A stretch of DNA of 64,000 nucleotides, from positions 154,546 through 218,545 of the forward strand of contig JAFTPS010000014.1 of NCBI GenBank assembly GCA_017463185.1. The letters are read 5' to 3'. Positions within the stretch are counted from its first letter, which is position 1, and each line of letters opens with the position of its first letter. Source of the DNA: Alphaproteobacteria bacterium. Lineage in GTDB: Bacteria > Pseudomonadota > Alphaproteobacteria > Rs-D84. This document shows, in pieces, positions 13 to 14,042 of the stretch. Made by a program: the position numbers and the translations under genes. The notes beneath the pieces were generated by a model. The model worked only from the letters and a program-made list of their open reading frames with translations. It was not told the DNA's origin and did not search any database.

Positions 13-1239
13 CTAAAAAACGTATCTCAAAGACAAACCACCTGTGTGATTAACCACATCTGTATGTAATCTTAAATCATAATTTAGGCGTAAATTTATG
101 CCGCTAATATTATATTCAGCCCAAATGCCAAATTCTGCCCCCAGTGGTCGTTCTGTGTCTTCTATTTCAAAATTGTATTTATATCCCAATACATCTAAAT
201 CTACTTTATTGTCTGGTTGTGTAATATTATATTCAACAAATGCACGACCACCCAATACAAAATCACCAATCGCATGTTCATAACCCGCCCCTGCAACAAC
301 ACTATAAAAATCACTTTTGGATTTTTTTAAGTATTCACTGTTTTGATTTAATTCTATATTTGTGTATCTGATACCAATTTCTGGACTTAATCCGTATTCT
401 GTTTTATAACCCGCCATAACCGATGCAAACAAACCAGATACATCACCATTATTCAATTCACTATCTATATACTCATAATCTGCAAAGTTATACGCAACCA
501 GCCCATTTACATAGAATTTGCTCGGTTGCCATTTTGAATATAAAAATACACTGCCTGTATCAAATAATATATCAGACGGATTTATATCTATATCAACATT
601 TGAATAACTGTATCCCGCACCCATTAAAACACTATCTGACAACTGTAAATCCGCCCCCAGAATAACCCCCAGTCCATTTGTTGAATAATTGTATTTACCA
701 GACTTATTCATTGAATTAAGTAATGTTGTTCCCCATACAGAAAACTTATCATCATTAAACCCTATATTACCAAAAACAGAATTATAAATATCAATATTAT
801 GTTGTTTTACAATATTTCTTGAAATGCCAATAACCGATAAATCCGTCAATTCAGAAACATTATTCGCAACCCAATTATCAAATTGATTTTTTAAGTCTGC
901 TACATTCTGTAAAACAAATTCATCCCCCTCTAAACCTATTTCCTTATCAAAATTTTCAAACGTTATACCAGAATAATAAAATTCACTTGGACTATAAGGT
1001 GCCTGATATTCATAACCGTTTCCATCACCCAACCATTCTGTTTGAGTTAATACTAAACTATGTTCAAACGGTTTATAATAATAGTAAATATCTGAAATTT
1101 GTGTTAATTGTCCAGCCGCAGCATATGCAGGGTCAATAACACTATACATATTACCATCATATGAAACCAACGTTAAATCCACTGCATGTGCAGAAATTGC
1201 ACAAAATATACCAACCAAACCAAATATTATCTTTTTCAT
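13..1239 (-). CDS. Outer-membrane beta-barrel protein (autotransporter/OMP-like), signal peptide
   Basis: N-terminal signal peptide MKKIIFGLVGIFCAISAHA. Gly/Tyr-rich amphipathic beta-strand pattern throughout and a C-terminal ...LSLRYVF ending in aromatic Phe, typical of OM beta-barrels. Preceded by the conserved structured leader (copy 1). Confidence 0.55.
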   Translation of the reverse strand: MKKIIFGLVGIFCAISAHAVDLTLVSYDGNMYSVIDPAYAAAGQLTQISDIYYYYKPFEHSLVLTQTEWLGDGNGYEYQAPYSPSEFYYSGITFENFDKEIGLEGDEFVLQNVADLKNQFDNWVANNVSELTDLSVIGISRNIVKQHNIDIYNSVFGNIGFNDDKFSVWGTTLLNSMNKSGKYNYSTNGLGVILGADLQLSDSVLMGAGYSYSNVDIDINPSDILFDTGSVFLYSKWQPSKFYVNGLVAYNFADYEYIDSELNNGDVSGLFASVMAGYKTEYGLSPEIGIRYTNIELNQNSEYLKKSKSDFYSVVAGAGYEHAIGDFVLGGRAFVEYNITQPDNKVDLDVLGYKYNFEIEDTERPLGAEFGIWAEYNISGINLRLNYDLRLHTDVVNHTGGLSLRYVF

Positions 1240-1490
1240 ACTACACCCTTTGTAAAAAAAACACCGCCAATAAAGGATATTGACGGTCGGGCGTTTCCAA
1301 AAATCATACTGTAAATGACTCCCATTGCGTTCAGGTTGCCCTTATTGTATTACAACGGGTGGCCCGACCAAAGGTCAGGCATAACGATGCGAATGCACCA
1401 TTTGCAAAAGTGGATAACGATGCATATCGCACCGTACAGTATGGGCTTTTGGAACCCGAACCCGCTAGTCCCCTATCGGATTCAATACTT
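1240..1490 (-). promoter_or_regulatory. Conserved structured 5' leader, copy 1 (terminator hairpin plus U8 abutting the RBS; upstream complementary antiterminator segment)
   Basis: In RNA orientation the leader reads ...GGGUUCGGG...CCUGACC..GGUCGGGCC...UAUGAUUU..GCCCGACCGUCAAUAUCCUUUAUUGGCGGUGUUUUUUUU-ACAAAGGG-N7-AUG. GGUCGGGC is complementary to GCCCGACC, which overlaps the terminator stem. The same architecture and motifs recur at 9328-9595 and 16493-16715. Confidence 0.55.
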
Positions 1491-1534
1491 ATAATAACAG
1501 TAAATACCTATAAATGCAAAAAATAAAAAAACGA

Positions 1535-2188
1535 CTAAATTGTTTCATCAACAAGCTTAGATATAAAATCTACAAAATCACTGGAAAATTTTATATCCAA
1601 ATTTTCATTACAAGAGATTAAATTTTTAATATTTTCTATATTTTGGAAATCTAGCCAACATTCATCACCTGTTTTACATGGGATAATCCTATCAGCCTCA
1701 CCTTTATAAAAGGCAGCAACCATAGGATTAATAAAATGATTATTTTGTTCACAAAAATCCTGCCACAACATAACAACATCGCCTCCATGACACATAGATA
1801 AAAAATCTTCACCATTCATGTAATTAAAACATAATTTTACGGGCAAATTAGCAACCCTTAAACCACGAGGCAAATTTACAAGAGCACGATTTATTTCTTG
1901 CTGACACATTTCTTTTATTTCTTCTAAAGATAAGTTATTATATTTTCTCTTAAATAGATCTACATCTAACCAAATACACAGCTCATCAAAATCACCTTTT
2001 ACAGATTTTAAAGCATCCTTTATTCTTGATATATAATTACTTACTGTTATACCACCACATAAATTACTAGACATTATAGTAACAATTTGCTTATCTGTAT
2101 ATTCTCTAAAAAACTTTTTCAATACTTTTATATACCTTTCTTCGCTTCCACCCTCACAAACCACCAAAATATATTTATATACACACAT
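1535..2188 (-). CDS. RloB/TOPRIM-like small protein (AbiLii / DUF4276-like partner of an ABC-type ATPase)
   Basis: N-terminal motif ILVVCEGGSEERYIK matches the RloB/OLD-TOPRIM (v)EGxxE signature. 217 aa; its start overlaps or abuts the upstream ATPase gene (2188 vs 2198). The gene is very AT-rich compared with its neighbours. Confidence 0.55.
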   Translation of the reverse strand: MCVYKYILVVCEGGSEERYIKVLKKFFREYTDKQIVTIMSSNLCGGITVSNYISRIKDALKSVKGDFDELCIWLDVDLFKRKYNNLSLEEIKEMCQQEINRALVNLPRGLRVANLPVKLCFNYMNGEDFLSMCHGGDVVMLWQDFCEQNNHFINPMVAAFYKGEADRIIPCKTGDECWLDFQNIENIKNLISCNENLDIKFSSDFVDFISKLVDETI

Positions 2189-2197
2189 GTCAAACCC

Positions 2198-3541
2198 CTA
2201 ATCCAAAATAATAGGCTGCCCCCTATACATCCCAGAAACATACCTATCTCTGAAATTAACCTCATTCCTTTTTTCTATAGAAGATAATCTAACCAAGACA
2301 GAACCGTTTTTTTTGTTTTTATTAACAAAGGCAAATTCATCTGTTTTATAAATCTTATTTTCTAAAATATCAGTTGTATGCAAAGTAGCTATTAGCTGCG
2401 CTCCATTCTTATTCAAATTTTTATATTTAAACCTTTTAATTAAACCTTCTAAAACTTTTGGATGTATAGAACGATCCATTTCATCTATTATAATCAAAAC
2501 ACCTTTTTCAACTGCCCCTAATATTAAACCAGCCAATTTAAATATTTCTTGAGTACCAACGGATAATTCATTATGAAAATTAAAAGGAACATCTTTTCCT
2601 GTATCATCTTCTAAATAAGGAATAATATCATCAACATAAACCTTGTCTTCATCAAAATTTTTTATAAAATCAAACGGAATTTCAACATTCATCAAACTCT
2701 CTTGAGAATACTCTTTATATTTATGCTCAAAACGTTTAACATCTACATCAAACATCTGAATAAACTTTGATATTTTATCCAAACTAACACATATATCTTC
2801 ATCCTTATCAGAATCAGCTAAATATCTAATAGAAGAAAATGCTCTTAAACTATCTTTTGCTGAAATTATTTTTATATTATTAGAAATATAATAAAAAACA
2901 TCCGATAACCTACTATCTAAGTTAGGAAATTGCCAAACAAATTTTTCTAAAAAAGTATTTTTTTGATAATCTTGTCCATCCTTACCACGAACAATAGCAG
3001 CAGTTTCGTATATTTTATCTAACAAAACATAATCAAAACCATCACAGTCAATATTATCAAAATAAGTTTTTTGATTTTCTATTTTGTATATAGATATATT
3101 ATTAGTTAAATCAATTAATTCTTCATAAACAATGGAATTCTCATCAAAAGCCAAAATATAACTATACTTACGTGAATTAACAAAAAATTCTATACTAAAA
3201 CACGTTGGTTCTTTTATAAAACGCAATTTGTTTGGTTGATACGAAGAAAAAACCAAACCATCTACTACAATCTCACGAAAAACTTTTATCGCCTTAACTA
3301 TATTACTTTTACCACTAGCATTAGGACCATATATACATTCCACAGGAACAACCCTGTCAGCAATTTTTTTTGTTGGTTCCAATGCATAAATTACATCTTT
3401 CTCAACCAATCTTTTTTGGCCAAAAGACATATCCAACGTCAAATCAACAATGGATTTAAAATTTTTTATATTTAATCTATACAACATGTTTTTTACCTTA
3501 GGCGAGCATATTATACCATAAAAAAGAAAAAAATTCAACAA
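2198..3541 (-). CDS. AAA_21/ABC-type ATPase (AbiLi / RloA / PARIS AriA-like defense ATPase)
   Basis: Walker A GPNASGKSN near the N-terminus. A long helical middle region, then Walker B/D-loop LIIIDEMDRSIHP and an H-loop-like ATLHT near the C-terminus; this split ABC ATPase architecture is typical of the AAA_15/21 family. Forms an operon with the TOPRIM-like gene. Confidence 0.65.
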   Translation of the reverse strand: MLNFFLFYGIICSPKVKNMLYRLNIKNFKSIVDLTLDMSFGQKRLVEKDVIYALEPTKKIADRVVPVECIYGPNASGKSNIVKAIKVFREIVVDGLVFSSYQPNKLRFIKEPTCFSIEFFVNSRKYSYILAFDENSIVYEELIDLTNNISIYKIENQKTYFDNIDCDGFDYVLLDKIYETAAIVRGKDGQDYQKNTFLEKFVWQFPNLDSRLSDVFYYISNNIKIISAKDSLRAFSSIRYLADSDKDEDICVSLDKISKFIQMFDVDVKRFEHKYKEYSQESLMNVEIPFDFIKNFDEDKVYVDDIIPYLEDDTGKDVPFNFHNELSVGTQEIFKLAGLILGAVEKGVLIIIDEMDRSIHPKVLEGLIKRFKYKNLNKNGAQLIATLHTTDILENKIYKTDEFAFVNKNKKNGSVLVRLSSIEKRNEVNFRDRYVSGMYRGQPIILD

Positions 3542-3630
3542 TAAACAACTTTTTTGTTTATATTATAAAAAAACAAACACAACAAACACAAAAACACATA
3601 CAATAATATTATTATAAACAAAAAAATTGT

Positions 3631-4803
3631 TTATAATACCACAAACCCCAGCATTTTATCTGTGGCGGTTTGCATAGAATCACGAATTGGGTCAACGGTC
3701 AGGCGACTATAAACCTGTGTTGCGCTGGTGGATTTATGGCCAAGTGATTTACCAATAACCGGCAAACTGGCACCCGATATTGCCTGCCACGACCCCATTG
3801 TGCGACGCAGGTCATGAATCCGCATATCTGTGATGTTTGCCGCCTTTAACAAAGATTGCCACGGACGTTTCGGGTCTTCCAGATGTCCACTGGCACTTTT
3901 ACTACTCGGCAATACCCAACCTTTTTTCTTGCCTTGATTGATTTTTAACAGCAATTCACGCAACTGATTCACCATTGGAATCTGCAACGGTTGCCCACCT
4001 TTGGAATCAGGCACATATATCAACCCCGACGTAAAATCAACATGTTCCCAGCGCATAGTCAGCACATTATTCCGCCGCATCCCAGTCATCAGCGATATCA
4101 TCACATAGTTTTTGAACACATCGTTTTTACATTCCGCCAAGGCCGTCCAGAACCTTTTTAATTCATCACCATTCAAGAATCTGTCCCGACTTTTTTCTGT
4201 AAATTTACGAATTCCGCCGGCCGGATTACCACGTAACCCCATTAAGCCCTTTTTCACTGCAATCACATACATATGCTTAATCAACGACAACACCCGATTG
4301 GCCGTATATGGACTGTGTGTTTTACAAGTCTCCGCATGCAGGCGTTCAATCTCGTCCGCTTTGATACTTAACAACTTGCGATTATGAAATTGATTCAACC
4401 GGTGCTTGAACACACTGTCATCATTTACAACCGAATGTTGCTTTTTATAGATTGTGGAATATTCGGGTTTATAGATATTTTCATAAAACTGGCGCAGGGT
4501 CATATCATTCAGATTTTCCCGTCTTTGAATACTGGGGTCTGTGCCATTAGTCGCCATTTCTTTTAAGCTATGCGCCTGCCGCCGTGCATCACACAGTTTA
4601 ATCTGCCCCACACGCCCGATTTTTATACGCTTTGGTGTGCCTTGGAATTTCATATAGGCATAATAAGTCTTTGCCCCGCCATAGGTCACAATAACACACA
4701 GACCATCATGACTGCCCGTGTCATAATAAACCGCCTGCCCCGATGCAGGAACGGCTAAATTTTCCAACGCCCGTTCTGTAAAATTGATACGATTTGACGA
4801 CAT
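3631..4803 (-). CDS. int: Tyrosine site-specific integrase (P4-type)
   Basis: 390 aa. C-terminal catalytic residues R..HDLRRT..HKSTSATQVYSRL (R-H-R-Y), with an N-terminal arm-binding region. The gene directly abuts the Bro-N gene and lies about 1 kb from a tRNA 3'-end fragment. Confidence 0.85.
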   Translation of the reverse strand: MSSNRINFTERALENLAVPASGQAVYYDTGSHDGLCVIVTYGGAKTYYAYMKFQGTPKRIKIGRVGQIKLCDARRQAHSLKEMATNGTDPSIQRRENLNDMTLRQFYENIYKPEYSTIYKKQHSVVNDDSVFKHRLNQFHNRKLLSIKADEIERLHAETCKTHSPYTANRVLSLIKHMYVIAVKKGLMGLRGNPAGGIRKFTEKSRDRFLNGDELKRFWTALAECKNDVFKNYVMISLMTGMRRNNVLTMRWEHVDFTSGLIYVPDSKGGQPLQIPMVNQLRELLLKINQGKKKGWVLPSSKSASGHLEDPKRPWQSLLKAANITDMRIHDLRRTMGSWQAISGASLPVIGKSLGHKSTSATQVYSRLTVDPIRDSMQTATDKMLGFVVL

Positions 4804-5634
4804 TTATTCTTTAGCCACACGCTTTAACAGTTTTGAATTTGTGCCCGACACAACCCTTTTTCCGGTTTCTTGTTCCAGCTGTAATCGTGCCTGACGGGCA
4901 ACATTACCGCCACGCTTGGCCACCGCCATATTTTGTGCCAGTCCCATTGGATTTTCATTTTTTGCAATCTCGGTCGCAGACAGTTCCGCCAACATATTCA
5001 GAACCAATTCAGCATTCGTCATATTATCACGCAAGGATTCTTTCTTTAGCCCTTTGTGCTGTTTATATTCTTTGGTCTTCATACCCGACCAAGAACGTGT
5101 AATTTCATCTGTCAGCAAGGCGTATTCCAATCCTTTCTTAATTCCACCCTTGTCCCATTGATTGGTCAGGTCTTTACGAATTTCAATAGAACGCAACCGC
5201 TGGGCAATCCATTCATCCGAATAACCCAACCGCTGGTAATAATTCAATGCACGTTGAATTGCGATTTCGGGGTCTGATATTTCATCAATTCTTTCACTAC
5301 CCACACTGGCCAGCCACAACTTAAATGGTTCTGCTTTCTTAGATGGCACAGATTGAATCAAGCGCAACAACTGTTCTGTGTCCGCCACATCGGTCATACG
5401 CAACTTGCCATCTGGTGCAACCAATTTCAACTGGTTACAATTTGTAACCGTTTCATTTCCTTCCGCCTTCAGACGGCTTTTCAAAACCTTCCAATAATTA
5501 CGTGAATGTTGATAATCCGATTCCGTCAATGCTGCAATAACATCAACAATGGAAAAATACCACTTTTCAGCATCCGCATCCCATTGGGTTCTGATATTTG
5601 TATCTTGGAACAGTTTTAGTGTCGTATCCGTCAT
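4804..5634 (-). CDS. Bro-N domain protein (DinD / phage antirepressor KilAC-like)
   Basis: N-terminal Bro-N-like segment WDADAEKWYFSIVDVIAALTES...YWKVLKSRL and a C-terminal KilAC-like region. 276 aa, a length matching the DinD family. Contiguous with int. Confidence 0.55.
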   Translation of the reverse strand: MTDTTLKLFQDTNIRTQWDADAEKWYFSIVDVIAALTESDYQHSRNYWKVLKSRLKAEGNETVTNCNQLKLVAPDGKLRMTDVADTEQLLRLIQSVPSKKAEPFKLWLASVGSERIDEISDPEIAIQRALNYYQRLGYSDEWIAQRLRSIEIRKDLTNQWDKGGIKKGLEYALLTDEITRSWSGMKTKEYKQHKGLKKESLRDNMTNAELVLNMLAELSATEIAKNENPMGLAQNMAVAKRGGNVARQARLQLEQETGKRVVSGTNSKLLKRVAKE

Positions 5635-5784
5635 TTTTTACCCCTGTAAATTTGACCCGTTATCTTTTTCGTTTTGCTACCAATTTTTATTAAATCTTGT
5701 TAAAGTTATTATGCGACACAATACGCAGAAAATCAAGAAAAATTAAACAATATTAAACAATGTTAAACACTTGACCCGTTAACT

Positions 5785-5819
5785 GAAGATCAGTGGTTCA
5801 AATCCATTCCCCGCAACCA
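5785..5819 (+). other. tRNA 3'-end fragment (T-arm GGTTCAAATCC plus acceptor 3' strand plus CCA); putative att repeat of the integrase island
   Basis: The sequence ...agtggTTCAAATccattccccgcaACCA has a T-arm and acceptor 3' half. There is no complementary 5' acceptor strand or D-arm upstream, so it is a fragment and not a functional tRNA gene. Confidence 0.5.
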
Positions 5820-5889
5820 GTTTTAATAAAAAATGCCCCTAATCCGGGGTGTTTTTTATTAAACCAAAATTATTTTATCCCAATCAAAA

Positions 5890-5914: not shown

Positions 5915-6931
5915 TCATTTTGATATATCAGATATCAATATTTCCATCAATTCATCTGACACTTTTTTTACCAATGCATTTTCAACTGTATTACACGATG
6001 CGCCAGATTCATAATGAATTGACTTTGAAACAGAATCAGTGGACACAATTTCCATTGTTGCAGTTTCTATAAGTTTATAGGAAACAGTCAATTTAGCATC
6101 TGTTTTTTGAACTTTTTCGCCTGTCAATTGAATAGTTTTATCTGTACGATTGATATTAAATCTTTCAATTCTACCAACCAACAGATAATCAGCTATTTCC
6201 AATTGTTTTAATTTATTTAAATTTTCTCGTTTTGCTATATCATCATTCAGTAATCCTAATTCTTTTGCTTGTTTATCAAAATTACTTCTGTCGACAACGG
6301 TCAATTTTTTTGACCTAGAGATATCCTTTTCCCACGCTGTTATTAAATCAGCATCTGTTAAACAATCCCATTTTTTCTTGCCTTCAAACCCTGTTATCAC
6401 CACACTATATTTTGATTTTTTTACCAAATCTGGTGAAACATAGTCATCTGTGACAAATACTTTTGCTTCAATCTCGACTGTATATTTTCCTTTTTTTTCT
6501 GATACAGATTTTACAGAATATCCCTCTATTTTTCCTTGATATTTTTGGTTGATATTTCTTTCTTCTATGCGCAAAGATTCATCAATTTTTCCACCTTTGT
6601 AATCTACAAAAACATCTTCCTTATAATCTGCTGAAACCTGTTGTTTATCATCATCAAACCAACCATCCGTAATTGATTTAAACCAAGATTTCTTTTCAAC
6701 CTTTGCTTTTATTTCACGTGTATCTTCCAGATGATAATCAGCAGAAACTATTTTCGCACTGTCTGCACCACCAGACACCACAGAAGTCTGTCTTATAGCA
6801 TTATCAATCGCATCAATAGTAGCTTCATATTCTGATTTTCCGTATCCCGTTGCACCTACATTTTGAATTTTTGCATTTGCATAATTTATAACACCGCAAA
6901 ACATTAAAAATACAATGAAAAATTTTTTCAT
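5915..6931 (-). CDS. Secreted protein, possibly CsgG/LpoB-fold lipoprotein-operon component
   Basis: Signal peptide MKKFFIVFLMFCGVINYANA (start taken at the internal Met). C-terminal ...KYSVVITGFEG..ADYLLVGRIERFNI.. resembles CsgG-family motifs. Last gene of the four-gene operon. Confidence 0.4.
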   Translation of the reverse strand: MKKFFIVFLMFCGVINYANAKIQNVGATGYGKSEYEATIDAIDNAIRQTSVVSGGADSAKIVSADYHLEDTREIKAKVEKKSWFKSITDGWFDDDKQQVSADYKEDVFVDYKGGKIDESLRIEERNINQKYQGKIEGYSVKSVSEKKGKYTVEIEAKVFVTDDYVSPDLVKKSKYSVVITGFEGKKKWDCLTDADLITAWEKDISRSKKLTVVDRSNFDKQAKELGLLNDDIAKRENLNKLKQLEIADYLLVGRIERFNINRTDKTIQLTGEKVQKTDAKLTVSYKLIETATMEIVSTDSVSKSIHYESGASCNTVENALVKKVSDELMEILISDISK

Positions 6932-6991
6932 TTTTACATCCTTTTTTGTAAAAAAACACCCAAACAAAATTTGAGTGTTTTTTATATTCGT

Positions 6992-7594
6992 TTACCAGGT
7001 TTGAGTATCTTTATCCACCAACTTTTTAATAATCTTATAATCTGACCATAATTCAGTACCATCTGATACATCCGTCAAAGATAAATCAAAAGTATATTCA
7101 ATCAGTTTATTTCTGCGATCAACATTTGTATTTTTTTGAGAAATACGCCCTGTCAGTGATAAATCAAATGCTTTTACTGTATTATTTTTCTTTACTGTTG
7201 ATTTATCAACCAACGAAGATTCGGCCAATTCTCTGGACGCAGCAACATCTGAATTTCTGTTTGAACCAAAAGAATTAGTTGCTTTTACATTTCCACTGCG
7301 TCTGACTTCTTTGGTTATAAACATTGTTAAATCGCGCATATTCAGCCGTTGTTGTGTATCATTTACAATTTCCGAAACCTTCATAATATATGGCTGACCA
7401 TTTGGTTTTGGGCTGGCCAATTCATGTGCCAGCATATCATTTAACATACTTTGGGCAGCAACTTCAAAATCATTACTTGATAATGTTGCAGATACAAATT
7501 CCTGGGATTCTGAATCAGTCAATACTTTTGGACTAGAAGAACATCCCACCCCCATAAAAGCTATTGCAATCATTAAATAAAAAACTTTTTTCAT
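6992..7594 (-). CDS. Lipoprotein (DUF799/LpoB-like?)
   Basis: Lipobox MGVGC|SSS. 200 aa. C-terminal pattern LSLTGRISQ...FDLSLTDVSDGTELWS is reminiscent of LpoB/CsgG-like folds. The family assignment is tentative. Confidence 0.4.
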   Translation of the reverse strand: MKKVFYLMIAIAFMGVGCSSSPKVLTDSESQEFVSATLSSNDFEVAAQSMLNDMLAHELASPKPNGQPYIMKVSEIVNDTQQRLNMRDLTMFITKEVRRSGNVKATNSFGSNRNSDVAASRELAESSLVDKSTVKKNNTVKAFDLSLTGRISQKNTNVDRRNKLIEYTFDLSLTDVSDGTELWSDYKIIKKLVDKDTQTW

Positions 7595-7607
7595 TTTTTT
7601 CCTTTTA

Positions 7608-7979
7608 TTATTGTTCTATTTTTGTATTTGATACATAAACTTTATAATCCACAGCCTTGCTTGATGGCGCGACAATGGTCCAATAAAAAGGCAATCCTTT
7701 TTTAACTGTCTGTTTTACATATTTAGACAACAAAGTATTTATTTTTATTCCACTATCATTAAACCAAGCTGTTGAATAATACAAATCTGTATCATTATAC
7801 ACTTCACCAGAAACGGTTATTTTCATATTTCCATTTTCTACATATTCAACCCCATTGATACGAATATTTTTTATACAATCGTCTGGCAGGCTATCTATAT
7901 GTATATGTTCAGGATTCAGATTTTGGGTGGTCGTACAACCACCCAAAACAATTCCTAAAATACAAATAATTTTTTTCAT
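7608..7979 (-). CDS. Small lipoprotein (DUF4810-like?)
   Basis: Lipobox LGGC|TTT. 123 aa. Sits in the operon between two other lipoproteins. Confidence 0.4.
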   Translation of the reverse strand: MKKIICILGIVLGGCTTTQNLNPEHIHIDSLPDDCIKNIRINGVEYVENGNMKITVSGEVYNDTDLYYSTAWFNDSGIKINTLLSKYVKQTVKKGLPFYWTIVAPSSKAVDYKVYVSNTKIEQ

Positions 7980-7992
7980 AATTTACCTGTAT

Positions 7993-9327
7993 TTAGTTCA
8001 GTTTACCAACAACTATTGCTGGCACTGCATTTGCCGTTGGGATACGAACAAATACAATTGCATTTTCAATACCTTCTGGGATAACAACTTCTAAGCCATC
8101 ATTGATAAATAATTTTCTATCAACAGGCATATTGACACGTGCCGTTTGAATTTCTGTTGGTATAGAATCCCAAGATCTTAAATCCCACGGTTTCTTTACA
8201 CTCATAACCCCGGTTACTGCCGCCGCTGTTGCTGCTGCCCTAAACGGAGTATCCTTAGCCGCTTCATTTGCTGCATATCCTGCTGCAGTTGCGGCGGCAA
8301 TTTTTCCAATTTCAAACGCTACTGAACTTATAATATTACGTGTCTTATATTTGTTATAATCAGTTTTAACAACAGAATCAACATTTACTAATTGTTGTGT
8401 TGTAACCGTTGTATCGCCAGATTTAACACTTATTGTTTCTAATGCTTTGGTTCCTGGGAATACATCAGGGATAGTCAGTTCAATACCCGCTTCAACCCCT
8501 AATGCTGACAATGGTTGTGTCAAAGGTTTCAAAACATCTGGTACCAATGAACGTTTTTGCAATTGTCCAACCATACCGTTTTCAAAAACAACATAAACAC
8601 TTCCTTTTTTCAAACCAGCAACATCTGATTTAACAAAAGTATTTTTTGGTGCAAATTTTGCAACTCTGCTCATACCATTGTTCGCATTACTATAATCACC
8701 GCTGGCACCATCATACAACGCCATCAACCAAGTAGTATATGGATTTGCATAATCTTTCATTGCGGTAATATCATCATCCAAAGACGATACATCTTTACTA
8801 ATGGAATCAGTAATAGAATCCAAACTTGGCACATTGATACCAAATTCTTTTAATATTTTTTGATCTTCTTTAAATTTCTCTTGTTCTTTTGCAATTTCAT
8901 CACTATTTTCGCTTATATTTTCTTTTTGTAAATCATATACCTGATTAAACACTTGCTTTGCATAAGAATCATCATTTGCAATCAGTCCAATTCCTTCATA
9001 AGTCTTGAACATAATCTTTTCATAACTTTTGATTTTATATGATGAATCTTCATCGGTTTCACCCTTTAATATAGAATTTACCGGTGAAAAACATGTTTCA
9101 AGTCCTTCTGCATTATTTGCCCATAAATATGCATTACCACACTGCAATCCACCCAAATAAACATTATTCGGTTCTTGATTTAATACAGTTGCCTTAGCCA
9201 TCTTTTCTGCTGCAACTTCGTAATTACCATTTGAAAAATCCTCGCGATATTGTTTGGAAATTTCTGCGTAATTACCATTACAGGCCGCCAATACCAGACA
9301 TCCTGTCAATAAAGTTATTTTTTTCAT
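7993..9327 (-). CDS. Lipoprotein, first gene of the four-gene envelope operon
   Basis: Start taken at MKKITLLTGCLVLAAC (lipobox LAAC). Ala/Thr-rich C-terminus. Immediately preceded by leader copy 2. Confidence 0.45.
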   Translation of the reverse strand: MKKITLLTGCLVLAACNGNYAEISKQYREDFSNGNYEVAAEKMAKATVLNQEPNNVYLGGLQCGNAYLWANNAEGLETCFSPVNSILKGETDEDSSYKIKSYEKIMFKTYEGIGLIANDDSYAKQVFNQVYDLQKENISENSDEIAKEQEKFKEDQKILKEFGINVPSLDSITDSISKDVSSLDDDITAMKDYANPYTTWLMALYDGASGDYSNANNGMSRVAKFAPKNTFVKSDVAGLKKGSVYVVFENGMVGQLQKRSLVPDVLKPLTQPLSALGVEAGIELTIPDVFPGTKALETISVKSGDTTVTTQQLVNVDSVVKTDYNKYKTRNIISSVAFEIGKIAAATAAGYAANEAAKDTPFRAAATAAAVTGVMSVKKPWDLRSWDSIPTEIQTARVNMPVDRKLFINDGLEVVIPEGIENAIVFVRIPTANAVPAIVVGKLN

Positions 9328-9595
9328 TGCACATCCCTTTGTTAAAAAATAAACCGTCAATGGAATTTGACGGTCGGGGAGTTAGCAAATCATATATGTC
9401 AATGATTCTGTCGCTTTTAGGTTTCCCCTGTTGTATAACGAACAGCCCCCCGACTGATTTACAGTCAGGGATAAATAACGACACAAAACCACAGGAATGA
9501 CATCGGATAACGATGCCATACGCAATTTTGCACCGGACATATAAAGGCTTGCTACAGCCCCGAACCCAATTCCCATTGGATTCATTTCCTAGTTT
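9328..9595 (-). promoter_or_regulatory. Conserved structured 5' leader, copy 2
   Basis: RNA orientation: GGGUUCGGGG...CCCUGAC..CAGUCGGGGGGCUGUUCGUUAUACAACAGG...UAUGAUUU...CCCCGACCGUCAAAUUCCAUUGACGGUUUAUUUUUU-AACAAAGGG-N8-AUG. Terminator-like hairpin plus U-tract. GUCGGGG is complementary to CCCCGAC. Confidence 0.55.
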
Positions 9596-9620
9596 AACAT
9601 AAAATATATAAAAAAGGCAA

Positions 9621-9650
9621 AAACAAAAAACGCCGCCAATCGGCGGGTTT
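9621..9650. terminator. Intrinsic terminator (cgccgccaatcggcggg flanked by A- and T-runs)
   Basis: GC stem-loop with a poly-A upstream and poly-T downstream. Lies downstream of rpmJ on the minus strand. Confidence 0.5.
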
Positions 9651-13441: not shown

Positions 13442-14042
13442 TTCCAATTTTTAATTCACTTACTTGTCTAAAAAAATCGTGTCGTACTGGCGCATACATA
13501 AACATAGTTCGTATCGCGGCTTGCTTATTTATATTATAAATCGCACCAATTCCAATTCGTGGTGCGGCACGATGGGTTGATACGGTTGTATCAATTCCAT
13601 CATATACACCGTTTTCCATTTCGCGATAATATGCATCTGTTTCAAAAATAAAGTTTGCAACACCAACAGATATTATGGCTTCCAGCCCGCGAAAGATATT
13701 ATAATATGTCTGAATATTCGCACCATAAATTTGATAACTTATTTGTGTTTTTAATTCCAGCCAATTGTATTCGTTGGTATAGCGGCTTTTTTCTGTATTT
13801 GTATCAAACGAATACCCATAAAAAATTTCCGCACCAAAACATTTGTTAAATCGTGCACCTGCATTGACTGTCACCGCGCCATATTTATCAGATATGTGAA
13901 CTGGATTTTCATTATAATCAACAAAAGCCAAACTTAAATCCACACCTACATATGGTTTAAAAGATTCTACTAATGGTTGTCGTATATTGGCATAACTTGA
14001 CACAGGTAATATAATAAAAAGTAAAAATAAAATGCGTATCAT
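13425..14042 (-). CDS. Small outer-membrane beta-barrel protein (OmpW/Omp25/OmpA-like 8-strand barrel)
   Basis: Signal peptide, alternating hydrophobic strands, and a C-terminal IGIRYTF. Confidence 0.55.
   Translation of the reverse strand: MIRILFLLFIILPVSSYANIRQPLVESFKPYVGVDLSLAFVDYNENPVHISDKYGAVTVNAGARFNKCFGAEIFYGYSFDTNTEKSRYTNEYNWLELKTQISYQIYGANIQTYYNIFRGLEAIISVGVANFIFETDAYYREMENGVYDGIDTTVSTHRAAPRIGIGAIYNINKQAAIRTMFMYAPVRHDFFRQVSELKIGIRYTF

Follow-up and report, generated by a model that had tools for sequence, protein, structure and literature searches.

We consider it probable that the window, that is, the whole stretch of 64,000 nucleotides analysed here, carries an AbiL/RloAB-type module of two genes as cargo of an approximately 6-kb integrative island located at the 3′-end of tRNA-Met(CAU), and that this module most likely serves as an anti-phage system, acting by abortive infection or in a toxin–antitoxin-like manner. 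The sequence apparently comes from the MAG of an uncultured alphaproteobacterium. Among the candidate anti-phage modules of the AbiL/RloAB class, which is already known, the pair is a new but fairly ordinary representative, and, apart from the palindrome described below, an automated annotation of defence genes would be expected to yield the same result. The locus is of interest as a well-delimited example of such a pair on a minimal mobile island, which consists of an integrase gene, a Bro/PDC-S13 gene and the presumed defence pair, and also since AbiL/RloAB pairs are widespread, although neither trigger nor target nor regulation is known for them as it is for PARIS, Gabija and OLD.

The ATPase and its RloB/AbiLii-type partner

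The ORF translations bore out both members of the pair on the minus strand, as given in the preliminary description. The first gene (2,198–3,487 bp, minus strand) encodes an AbiLi-type ABC ATPase (Rad50/SMC-like, AAA_21) of 429 aa, which, by analogy, is presumed to be the sensor and regulator of the module. A length of 447 aa had been assigned to this protein on the basis of a TTG codon at 3,541 bp, but this start was rejected because the database protein P0003, which is identical to the window ATPase, consists of 429 aa and the ATG at 3,487 bp is the start in 22 of the 22 aligned ATPase homologues. The first base of this TTG (3,541–3,539 bp) falls on the final base of a palindrome, and its other two bases fill the 2 nt ahead of the promoter-like site.

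The motifs reported earlier for the ATPase, namely Walker A GPNASGKS, the Walker B/D-loop LIIIDEMDRSIHP and the H-loop ATLHT, were all found in the translation, as was the N-terminal motif ILVVCEGGSEERY of the partner, and the four motifs map to invariant columns of the family alignments. Over 94 ATPase homologues, the invariant residues are G54/N56/G59/K60 of Walker A, G311 of the signature, D335-E336 of Walker B, H342, Q364 and H370 of the H-loop, and the signature residues S309 and T312 are present in at least 90%. The AAA_21-type assignment was upheld by Pfam (AAA_21, 5.3e-23; AAA_15, 2e-9), and AbiLi was the top PADLOC profile (8.5e-63, 210 bits), the best of 42 matching models. The ATPase homologues of three homologous loci (L001–L003) matched the same profile at 1.5e-59 to 3.9e-63. 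The AF2 model of the ATPase (pLDDT 94.7) had its top Foldseek matches in Rad50 heads (4e-11), Thermus OLD (1e-9), SMC heads and PtuA of Septu (3e-9). Judged from its sequence, the product of the first gene belongs to the Rad50/SMC-like ABC ATPases, more precisely to the AAA_21/AbiLi family, and has all of its nucleotide-binding motifs intact.

The second gene (1,535–2,188 bp, minus strand) encodes a divergent TOPRIM-like protein of the RloB/AbiLii family, 217 aa in length, presumed from analogous systems to be a metal-dependent nuclease effector. The earlier RloB/TOPRIM assignment of this partner holds at the level of the family, whereas the partner alone matched Pfam RloB (PF13707) along residues 7–97 only (22.6 bits, E = 1.4e-4), below the gathering threshold of 31.5 bits, and its match to PADLOC AbiLii was weak and limited to the N-terminal part (5.2e-4, 18.7 bits). 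Among the members of its family, 28 of 40 matched Pfam RloB (best 2.6e-12) and all 40 aligned members matched PADLOC AbiLii (best 2.1e-11). The hhalign comparison of the family with 51 canonical RloB partners gave 98.6% probability (E = 1.2e-15, 150 columns). A word-indexed search had recovered only two near-identical proteins as homologues of the partner, whereas the exhaustive HMMER search recovered the family. The placement of the partner as a divergent branch of RloB/AbiLii is supported by these sequence comparisons.

Relative to canonical RloB, the partner carries an insertion of approximately 15 residues, and its subfamily has conserved residues of its own, NxMNxEDF where the canonical proteins have NPCFELW, and the His of NHF..P. 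Residues E12, E16, D75, D77, E127, and D128 do not vary among 81 sequences and form the pattern E-x3-E, DxD, then a downstream acidic residue at a helix start. The two-metal site of Burkholderia pseudomallei OLD is built of E400/E404, D455/D457, and E508 (PMC6755086), with which both the order of the acidic residues and the E-x3-E spacing of the partner agree. The partner would thereby possess the conserved Glu, the DxD and the extra acidic ligands expected of a TOPRIM/OLD two-metal nuclease, and the locus defines a divergent RloB subfamily with clear candidate catalytic residues. Foldseek comparison of the partner with the PDB gave no significant match, and the family profile found nothing among PDB sequences (best E = 0.14). 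For AbiLii itself, a similarly partial superposition has been reported, with 123 residues aligned on the OLD entry 6NJV (PMC13064643), and the best reported HHpred hit of a lactococcal AriB is PH0156 (PMC11381338). The partner had been suspected to be a compact variant; this idea is unsupported, since RloB partners of related ATPases are 183–250 aa long and 217 aa is normal for RloB.

The two genes are separated by a 9-nt gap (2,189–2,197 bp), and a Shine–Dalgarno-like AGGGG spans the stop codon upstream of the partner gene. Translational coupling, as originally proposed, is not accompanied by any overlap of the genes, but operonic coupling of the two is plausible from their arrangement. The intergenic gap in homologous loci is mostly −4 to +12 nt. 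Related loci were found with the ATPase alignment by scanning one genome per species; the genome of the window is not among the species representatives, and the best match was 32% identical. More than 540 relatives were present among the matches listed. In 80 related ATPase loci from many phyla, RloB accounted for 53 of the 54 downstream ORFs scanned (180–260 aa).

The promoter-adjacent palindrome

A promoter-like site of the pair, TTGAAT, 17 nt, TG-TATAAT (3,510–3,538 bp, minus strand), lies 22 nt upstream of the ATG. This site, recognised by consensus match alone, agrees with the consensus at 10 of 12 positions, has an extended −10 box and is the best match in the region. An operator-like palindrome, ATAAAC-N9-GTTTAT (3,541–3,561 bp), is situated 2 nt from the −35 hexamer, and its distal copy (3,614–3,634 bp; inverted repeat I1) overlaps the stop codon of the integrase gene. 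These are the only two exact matches in the 64-kb window, both at this locus, compared with 0.11 expected, and the distal copy is also carried by the strain variants L088 and L091.

The palindrome adjoins the promoter region here and in eight related loci, four of them from other phyla. The related loci include those of Sphaerochaeta, Lentisphaerae, Methylacidiphilales and Sutterella, and their flanks are otherwise unconserved. In most of the eight, it is located approximately 60–89 nt upstream of the ATPase ATG, and much closer in one (L014). Its occurrence is restricted to the ATPase clade of the window. A role as terminator was ruled out by the lack of a T-run, the AT-only stem and the position upstream of the −35 box, and a role as integrase arm site by its presence in loci without integrase.

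The conservation of a palindrome next to the promoter suggests that the pair is autoregulated, and the palindromes beside the −35 box could act as the operator for self-regulated transcription, as in type II TA modules. Neither protein of the pair contains a recognisable DNA-binding domain that would account for an operator. The promoter-adjacent palindrome is not described in the literature found on such systems. We tentatively propose, as a possibility that at present has the odds against it, that the ATPase clade of the window, whose members mostly have a partner of the RloB subfamily with the insertion, forms a distinct self-regulated AbiL subtype, whose own proteins bind an ATAAAC-N9-GTTTAT operator travelling with the operon over at least four phyla, and that AbiL-type operons generally have clade-specific operators, that of another clade being TTGCA-N7-TGCAA. 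If so, AbiL-type operons would count as TA-like modules with autoregulation, possibly with effectors whose specificity is unlike that of the known TOPRIM defence nucleases. The palindrome also offers a concrete and cheap handle on how such systems stay silent.

Relation to known systems and putative function

AbiL is an experimentally defined Abi system, which is grouped with the ABC ATPase plus TOPRIM systems (PMC13064643, PMC11464382). Like AbiLi/AbiLii of the Lactococcus lactis plasmid pND861, the window pair is bicistronic with the ATPase gene first, its ATPase is a strong AbiLi match, and its partner belongs to a family in which AbiLii is matched by 40 of 40 members and whose structure is probably TOPRIM/OLD-like. 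It differs from AbiL in the weak N-terminal AbiLii match of the partner (5e-4), in the insertion of approximately 15 residues compared with canonical RloB, and in the carrier, which is a chromosomal tRNA island in an alphaproteobacterial MAG instead of a plasmid. The module had been described as belonging to the AbiL/PARIS class, of which the AbiL/RloAB-type part stands by the AbiLi match and the PARIS part does not, as the partner is devoid of DUF4435: at E ≤ 0.01, DUF4435 (PF14491) was matched neither by the partner nor by any of the 40 family members. PARIS (AriA/AriB) likewise combines an AAA_15/21 ABC ATPase with a separate TOPRIM-like effector and is often found on elements with P4-type integrases. 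However, the AriA match of the window ATPase (1.3e-25, 89 bits) is weaker than its AbiLi match (210 bits), and the partner, with its 217 aa, does not reach the size of the 35-kDa AriB (approximately 280 aa in the lactococcal homologue). The OLD family, comprising class 1 (P2 Old, Thermus OLD), class 2 (B. pseudomallei OLD) and GajA of Gabija, shares with the pair the order of acidic residues of the two-metal site, and structural matches were recovered for the ATPase head and, more tentatively, for the TOPRIM-plus-helical nuclease. In OLD and GajA, however, ATPase and nuclease are fused, whereas in the window they are encoded by separate ORFs, and Gabija requires a UvrD-like helicase (GajB), whereas no helicase is present in the window island.

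For the mechanism of the pair, we infer a sensor–effector scheme, which was borrowed from PARIS and OLD. The best mechanistic model is PARIS, in which the nuclease is sequestered by a hexamer of the ATPase and cleaves tRNA once a trigger has released it. If the pair works in a way analogous to PARIS, to OLD and to the TA-like AAA plus TOPRIM_OLD pairs, an oligomer of the window ATPase may keep the nuclease inactive and serve as infection sensor, a phage cue would lead to release or activation of the nuclease, and the nuclease would then cleave nucleic acid (tRNA/RNA or DNA) in a Mg2+-dependent manner, by which phage growth would be halted.

Alternatively, the pair could be primarily an addiction (toxin–antitoxin) module, in which the nuclease is the toxin, the ATPase is the antitoxin and the carrier island or plasmid is stabilised, with phage defence being incidental or absent. 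Toxin–neutraliser behaviour was validated for three pairs neutralised by an AAA protein, in two of which the toxin is TOPRIM_OLD (PMC10440598), the palindrome next to the promoter suits TA-style autoregulation, and the small carriers fit as well: besides Rop and MobA, such a pair is the only annotated cargo of 3.9-kb mobilizable Escherichia coli plasmids, and the integrase island here is minimal. Addiction is, however, compatible with defence, since PARIS is both TA-like and a defence system, and the prototype AbiL was defined by its phage-resistance phenotype (PMC13064643). Moreover, the pairs of L002 and L003 have no adjacent integrase or detectable att repeat, leaving no evident element to stabilise. 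We therefore regard a primary addiction role as unlikely and keep to the anti-phage reading.

The RloA/RloB pairs, annotated as ‘ATP-binding protein’ plus ‘RloB family protein’ on 3.9-kb ColE1-type plasmids of E. coli and in type I R-M loci of Campylobacter, resemble the window pair in the two-gene layout, the sizes (approximately 410–450 aa plus 183–250 aa), the Pfam families and the small mobile carriers. They differ in that the ATPases are only 24–32% identical, the window has no R-M genes and the palindrome is limited to the clade of the window. The RloB family, to which the partner belongs, was named after R-M-linked ORFs (PMC10440598, PMC13064643), which raises the question of whether the pair is an accessory of a type I restriction–modification locus, of the kind first observed in Campylobacter, and requires R-M genes to function. 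This is very improbable, since R-M genes are absent from the island and from 10 kb on each side, as well as from the homologous loci L001–L003 and the pair-bearing E. coli plasmids.

The tRNA-Met island and the mobility of the pair

The integrase-island context indicated by the preliminary description was confirmed with all of its elements (P4-type integrase, Bro-N gene and tRNA att repeat). The island of approximately 6 kb contains, in this order, the intact tRNA-Met just left of the window, an autotransporter gene, the pair, the integrase gene, the Bro-N gene and the att repeat. The P4-type tyrosine integrase (390 aa; 3,631–4,803 bp, minus strand) matched Pfam Phage_integrase (1.1e-24), Arm-DNA-bind_3 (1.9e-11) and the PHROG 1 integrase (2.8e-54). 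Its gene is contiguous with that of the Bro-N domain protein (276 aa; 4,804–5,634 bp, minus strand; Pfam Bro-N, 1.5e-9; phrog_15286, 6e-126), which is a full-length match (residues 1–273, 5.9e-128) to PDC-S13, a PADLOC candidate single-gene defence family. The attR site (5,783–5,863 bp, plus strand) is a direct repeat of the 3′ approximately 42 nt of tRNA-Met(CAU) and its terminator hairpin, 94% identical over 81–84 nt to 13,625–13,708 bp of the identical 264-kb contig L005, which is k141_239487 of ENA ERZ27256823. ARAGORN found no intact tRNA within the window; the intact tRNA-Met lies at 13,672–13,748 bp of L005, approximately 185–260 nt past the left edge of the window. The 25-nt 3′-end of the tRNA occurs once in the window, with 0 occurrences expected by chance. 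Thus, with an Arm-DNA-bind_3 integrase, an intact tRNA at one end and the repeat of its 3′-end at the other, the predicted element has the features of a tRNA-integrated island.

The autotransporter beta-domain gene (13–1,239 bp, minus strand; Pfam Autotransporter, 2.6e-14) is enclosed by the direct repeats, with the pair on one side and the intact tRNA on the other, and represents variable cargo: the strain variants L091 and L092 lack it, and other genes take its place in L088, whose homology with the window stops at the autotransporter start. A structured leader-like spacer of 300 nt (1,236–1,534 bp, minus strand), extending from the partner gene to the autotransporter gene, travels with the Bro–integrase–ATPase–partner block. 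It has a 65%-identical paralogue at 9,319–9,631 bp, a fold z-score of −6.5 and a terminator-like hairpin (1,287–1,263 bp) immediately 5′ of the ribosome-binding site.

The AT-richness of the pair noticed at the outset is real, 27.6% GC versus 41.2% for the whole window; windows of the same size have a mean of 41.3% GC (sd 4.3), and only 0.3% of them are as low as the pair. A genome background of approximately 32% GC, taken from the first 10 kb, was rejected in favour of the 41.2% of the whole window, which makes the pair, rather than the integrase, the compositional outlier. The integrase (44.7%) and Bro (43.0%) genes are close to the window average, about 16–17 points from the pair. This difference bears on the idea that the pair serves the life cycle of the island, for example, with the TOPRIM protein as a primase-like initiator of replication and the ATPase acting in partition or packaging, in the manner of P4-like satellites. 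The integrase is indeed of the P4 type and TOPRIM domains are found in primases. Nevertheless, the profiles matched by the partner are those of RloB, AbiLii and OLD-type proteins, primase and helicase domains are missing from it, and the pair occurs without integrase in L001–L003 and on ColE1-type plasmids, which replicate otherwise, so that such a role is hardly to be expected, and the pair is better read as anti-phage cargo of the island.

The homologous pairs of L001 and L003, too, are much lower in GC than their flanks, and att repeats were not found around the homologous pairs of L001–L003. In a related genome, a homologous pair is located at the same tRNA-Met, in low-GC DNA and with different neighbouring cargo. 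It is 43%/40% identical to the window pair, whereas four of five compared flanking genes are 74–93% identical (among them VirB4 81%, DUF374 74% and L36 93%), which points to turnover at a hotspot and not to a housekeeping gene kept at the locus in relatives. The possibility that the pair is a vertically inherited SMC/RecF/RecN-like DNA-repair ATPase with a cofactor, to which the shared tRNA-Met position and weak, P-loop-only SMC_N and RecF matches could be referred, is the least credible of all, given this divergence, the sub-cut-off SMC_N score, the RecF score of 15.5 bits against a cut-off of 172 bits, the extreme GC content, the patchy distribution over phyla and plasmids, and the position inside att repeats. 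By its composition and distribution, the pair is a low-GC cassette that moves horizontally. Adjacency to tRNA genes was rejected as a general trait of the family, since no more than 6 of 84 loci have a tRNA within 1 kb; the tRNA genes of the four closest contexts are convergent and downstream of the pair, within 0.15 to 3.6 kb.

Architecture of the gene pair and identity of its products

Two adjacent ORFs were found on the minus strand between 1535 and 3541. In the preliminary description, the ATPase was given a length of 447 aa, which corresponds to a TTG start codon at 3541; however, the identical database protein (P0003) comprises 429 aa and 22 of the 22 aligned homologues begin at the ATG at 3487, therefore the ATPase gene was assigned to 2198–3487. 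The 18 extra codons of the longer ORF span a promoter-like site (TTGAAT-17-TG-TATAAT, 3538..3510). The ATPase gene is separated from the partner gene (1535–2188, minus strand, a 217-aa ORF) by a 9-nt gap containing an AGGGG Shine–Dalgarno-like sequence, and the gap in homologous loci is mostly −4 to +12 nt. The two genes clearly constitute one predicted operon and their translational coupling is plausible. The motifs quoted earlier were all present and occupied invariant columns of the family alignments.

The first gene encodes an intact Rad50-like ABC ATPase. Pfam detected AAA_21 (5.3e-23) and AAA_15 (2e-9), and its SMC_N and RecF-type matches were sub-threshold and restricted to the P-loop. 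The AlphaFold2 model, obtained with 94 homologues as input, was confident (pLDDT 94.7, pTM 0.93) and its top PDB matches were Rad50 ATPase heads (4e-11), Thermus OLD (1e-9), SMC heads, and Septu PtuA (3e-9). All 94 homologues retain Walker A, Walker B, the signature glycine, and the H-loop histidine unchanged, and at least 90% of them also keep the signature Ser and Thr; judging from these motifs, the enzyme looks active. Among the defence-system profiles, AbiLi was by far the best (8.5e-63, 210 bits), followed by AriA of PARIS (89 bits) and, with lower scores, by other defence families with ABC ATPases.

Taken alone, the 217-aa partner makes a weak case for RloB/AbiLii, as Pfam RloB reached 22.6 bits against a threshold of 31.5 bits and PADLOC AbiLii gave 5e-4, with both matches limited to the N-terminal 90 residues. 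A word-indexed homologue search returned only two near-identical proteins, and an exhaustive HMMER search of 1.84 billion representatives recovered 90 clusters (E ≤ 0.001), the great majority of them 190–215 aa long. In this family, PADLOC AbiLii matched 40 of 40 members (best 2e-11), Pfam RloB 28 of 40 (best 2.6e-12), and OLD-like_TOPRIM 3 of 40, and profile–profile comparison of the family with 51 canonical RloB proteins of related loci gave a probability of 98.6% (E 1.2e-15, 150 columns). Since 217 aa is a normal RloB length, the earlier idea of a compact variant was unsupported. Compared with canonical RloB, the subfamily of the window has an insertion of approximately 15 residues, which ends just before the conserved His.

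The structural matches of the partner included PH0156 (2P62; 7.4, 150), the C-terminal region of the B. pseudomallei class 2 OLD (6.8, 137), Thermus OLD (5.9, 120), and GajA (5.5, 127). PH0156 is also reported as the best HHpred match of an AriB/DUF4435 protein from a lactococcus (PMC11381338). Because other Rossmann-like folds were interspersed among these matches, the modelled evidence for a TOPRIM/OLD-like partner is supportive rather than decisive. The acidic sequence pattern is more telling. E12, G13, E16, D75, D77, E127, and D128 are invariant in the family alignment, H151, Y172, and K174 are nearly so, and the E-x3-E, the DxD, and the acidic pair starting the next helix are arranged in the same order as E400/E404, D455/D457, and E508, by which the B. 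pseudomallei OLD coordinates two Mg2+ ions (PMC6755086). On this alignment, the product of the second gene is a conserved RloB/TOPRIM-like protein in which the set of candidate metal ligands is complete.

Of the classes proposed previously (AbiL, PARIS, Gabija, and OLD), only AbiL was retained: the AbiLi profile and the AbiL gene architecture were both found at the locus, and RloB/AbiLii was recognised in the partner at the family level only. PARIS was discarded since its defining DUF4435 is absent here, and so were Gabija and class 1 OLD, as the fusion defining them is absent and there is no helicase at the locus. AbiL is defined by phage resistance in Lactococcus (PMC13064643), and the pair probably represents an AbiL-type defence or TA-like module. 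A detailed sensor–effector scheme is less certain: the ATPase would restrain and license the partner nuclease, which would stop infection through cutting RNA or DNA. This scheme is based on analogy with PARIS, where AriB is sequestered by an AriA hexamer and freed by a trigger, whereupon tRNA is cut (PMC11464382, PMC12409363), with OLD nucleases, and with the AAA-neutralised pairs, which behave as toxin–antitoxin systems and include two in which the toxin is a TOPRIM_OLD protein (PMC10440598). The divergent RloB subfamily and a conserved putative operator are the only parts that we did not find described in the literature consulted on such systems; otherwise the locus is of the already known AbiL/RloAB kind.

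Distribution and mobile context of the pair

The ATPase–partner pairing is obligate across phyla. ATPase homologues at 36%–43% identity are each followed by a partner relative of 197–212 aa in differing neighbourhoods, adjoining a type IV secretion operon (L001), feoAB (L002), or pyruvate:ferredoxin oxidoreductase genes (L003). With one genome taken per species, at least 540 stretches encode ATPase relatives, and Spirochaetota, Lentisphaerae, Verrucomicrobia, Proteobacteria, Cyanobacteria, Bacteroidota, Firmicutes, and archaea are among those listed. Pfam RloB was found in 53 of the 54 downstream ORFs (180–260 aa) scanned, which were drawn from 80 of the at least 540 related loci (best 1.7e-49). 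The pair is carried on mobile elements: the family was found on 140 plasmids, among them mobilizable ColE1-type plasmids of E. coli with a length of 3.9 kb, on which nothing is annotated apart from Rop, MobA, an "ATP-binding protein", and an "RloB family protein".

A 264-kb metagenomic contig (L005) includes a segment identical to the window, and on this contig an intact tRNA-Met(CAU) lies approximately 185–260 nt past the left edge of the window. The att site suspected previously was located at 5783–5863, where the last ~42 nt of this tRNA and its terminator hairpin are repeated in direct orientation (94% over 81–84 nt). The repeats enclose about 6 kb containing, in order, an autotransporter beta-domain gene (13–1239), a 300-nt spacer (1236–1534, minus strand), the pair, a P4-type integrase gene (3631–4803, Arm-DNA-bind_3 and Phage_integrase domains), and, contiguous with it, a Bro-N gene (4804–5634, minus strand), the last two as anticipated. 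The AT-richness noted for the pair was also borne out (27.6% GC vs. 41.2% in the window as a whole; a value this low was seen in only 0.3% of same-size windows); the integrase and Bro genes have 43%–45% GC, similar to the rest of the window. The pairs of L001 and L003 have 25%–29% GC within flanks of 38%–45%.

A housekeeping gene conserved at this locus was rejected. In the related genome L001 the pair likewise lies on the 3′ side of tRNA-Met, but it is only 43%/40% identical to that of the window, while core genes share 74%–93% (VirB4 81%, DUF374 74%, L36 93%), the integrase is absent, and the neighbours differ (a DUF6119 gene and small ORFs). A diverged pair with different neighbours at the same site is characteristic of a tRNA integration hotspot whose fast-evolving cargo turns over. 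The pair is also directly beside a tRNA 3′ end in L002 (tRNA-Thr) and L003 (tRNA-Met), although a tRNA lies within 1 kb in only 6 of 84 loci of the wider family, thus the adjacency is not general. In L001 (7275–10445), the homologous pair shares the hotspot with three small ORFs and the gene of a 578-aa DUF6119 protein, all of them in low-GC DNA, and none of these additional genes had a PADLOC match.

Among strain variants, the block from Bro to the spacer is intact at 94% identity and divergence is seen beyond it. The autotransporter gene is replaced in L088 (4224–7540) by two small ORFs, a second integrase (526 aa), and an HTH_17 (excisionase-like) gene; it is missing from L091 and L092, with a single 92-aa ORF in L091 (2649–2927). 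The tRNA-proximal end of the island is hypervariable among these variants. Several short metagenomic contigs with the pair (L006, L007) end inside the integrase 3′-end (window ~3698–3766), and co-occurring strains may differ in the integrase–Bro segment or have it in repeated copies. The Bro-N gene matched over its full length both phrog_15286 (6e-126) and PDC-S13 (5.9e-128), a candidate family of single-gene defence systems in PADLOC; the island may therefore hold a second candidate for defence besides the pair, or PDC-S13 may be no more than a regulator common on islands. Just outside attR, a four-gene lipoprotein cluster (5915–9360, minus strand; CsgG-like and LpoB-like genes and a 455-aa protein) has 32.9% GC vs. 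42.4% in the remainder of the window and may also have been acquired. The spacer at 1236–1534 is 65% identical to a second ~300-nt element (9323–9631, minus strand). Each immediately precedes an outer-membrane or lipoprotein gene, ends in a terminator-like hairpin and U-run just 5′ of the ribosome-binding site, and folds much better than shuffled versions of itself (z −6.5 for the spacer and −4.8 for the second element), being a candidate for a structured leader or attenuator; the second had a sub-threshold match to Rfam sRNA-Xcc1 (36.4 bits, cut-off 53, E 1.7e-4).

Palindromes upstream of the ATPase gene

A 21-bp palindrome, ATAAAC-N9-GTTTAT, occurs twice upstream of the ATPase gene, once 2 nt from the −35 hexamer (3541–3561) and once over the integrase stop codon (3614–3634); these are the sole exact matches in 64 kb, where 0.11 is expected. 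The palindrome also precedes the ATPase start in L002, L003, L008 (Sphaerochaeta), L009 (Lentisphaerae), L011 (Methylacidiphilales), and L014, and with one mismatch in L013 (Sutterella) and L001, the background density of the one-mismatch pattern being ~3e-5 per nt. Its distance to the ATG is ~60–89 nt in most of these loci and much shorter in L014. In several of them it abuts a TTGAC-like −35 element, and its flanks are otherwise unalignable between loci. ATAAAC-N9-GTTTAT is found only among the closest relatives of the ATPase; among AbiLi-like loci that are more distant and come from unrelated phyla, TTGCA-N7-TGCAA occurs 36–71 nt upstream of the ATPase start (L026, L054, L068, L072, and L080; five loci vs. 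0.33 expected), which suggests clade-specific operators across the ATPase family.

No conserved regulator gene adjoins the pair, therefore the simplest reading is that ATAAAC-N9-GTTTAT is a putative operator bound by the system's own proteins in TA-style autoregulation. Neither the ATPase nor the partner has a recognisable DNA-binding domain, though both families act on nucleic acids. Looser versions of TTGCA-N7-TGCAA were seen in L018, L020, L036, L040, L071, and L075. Two close ATPase relatives with the ATAAAC-N9-GTTTAT palindrome, L008 and L013, have no RloB-like ORF directly downstream, the next ORF encoding 729 aa (L008, 7251–9640) or 110 aa (L013, 7293–7798), and these loci may have lost the effector or exchanged it for another. 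Between the two palindromes of the window lies a TG-rich tract, tgtatgtgtttttgtgtttgttgtgtttg (3566–3610, minus strand), which shows small length differences in the strain variants L088 and L091.
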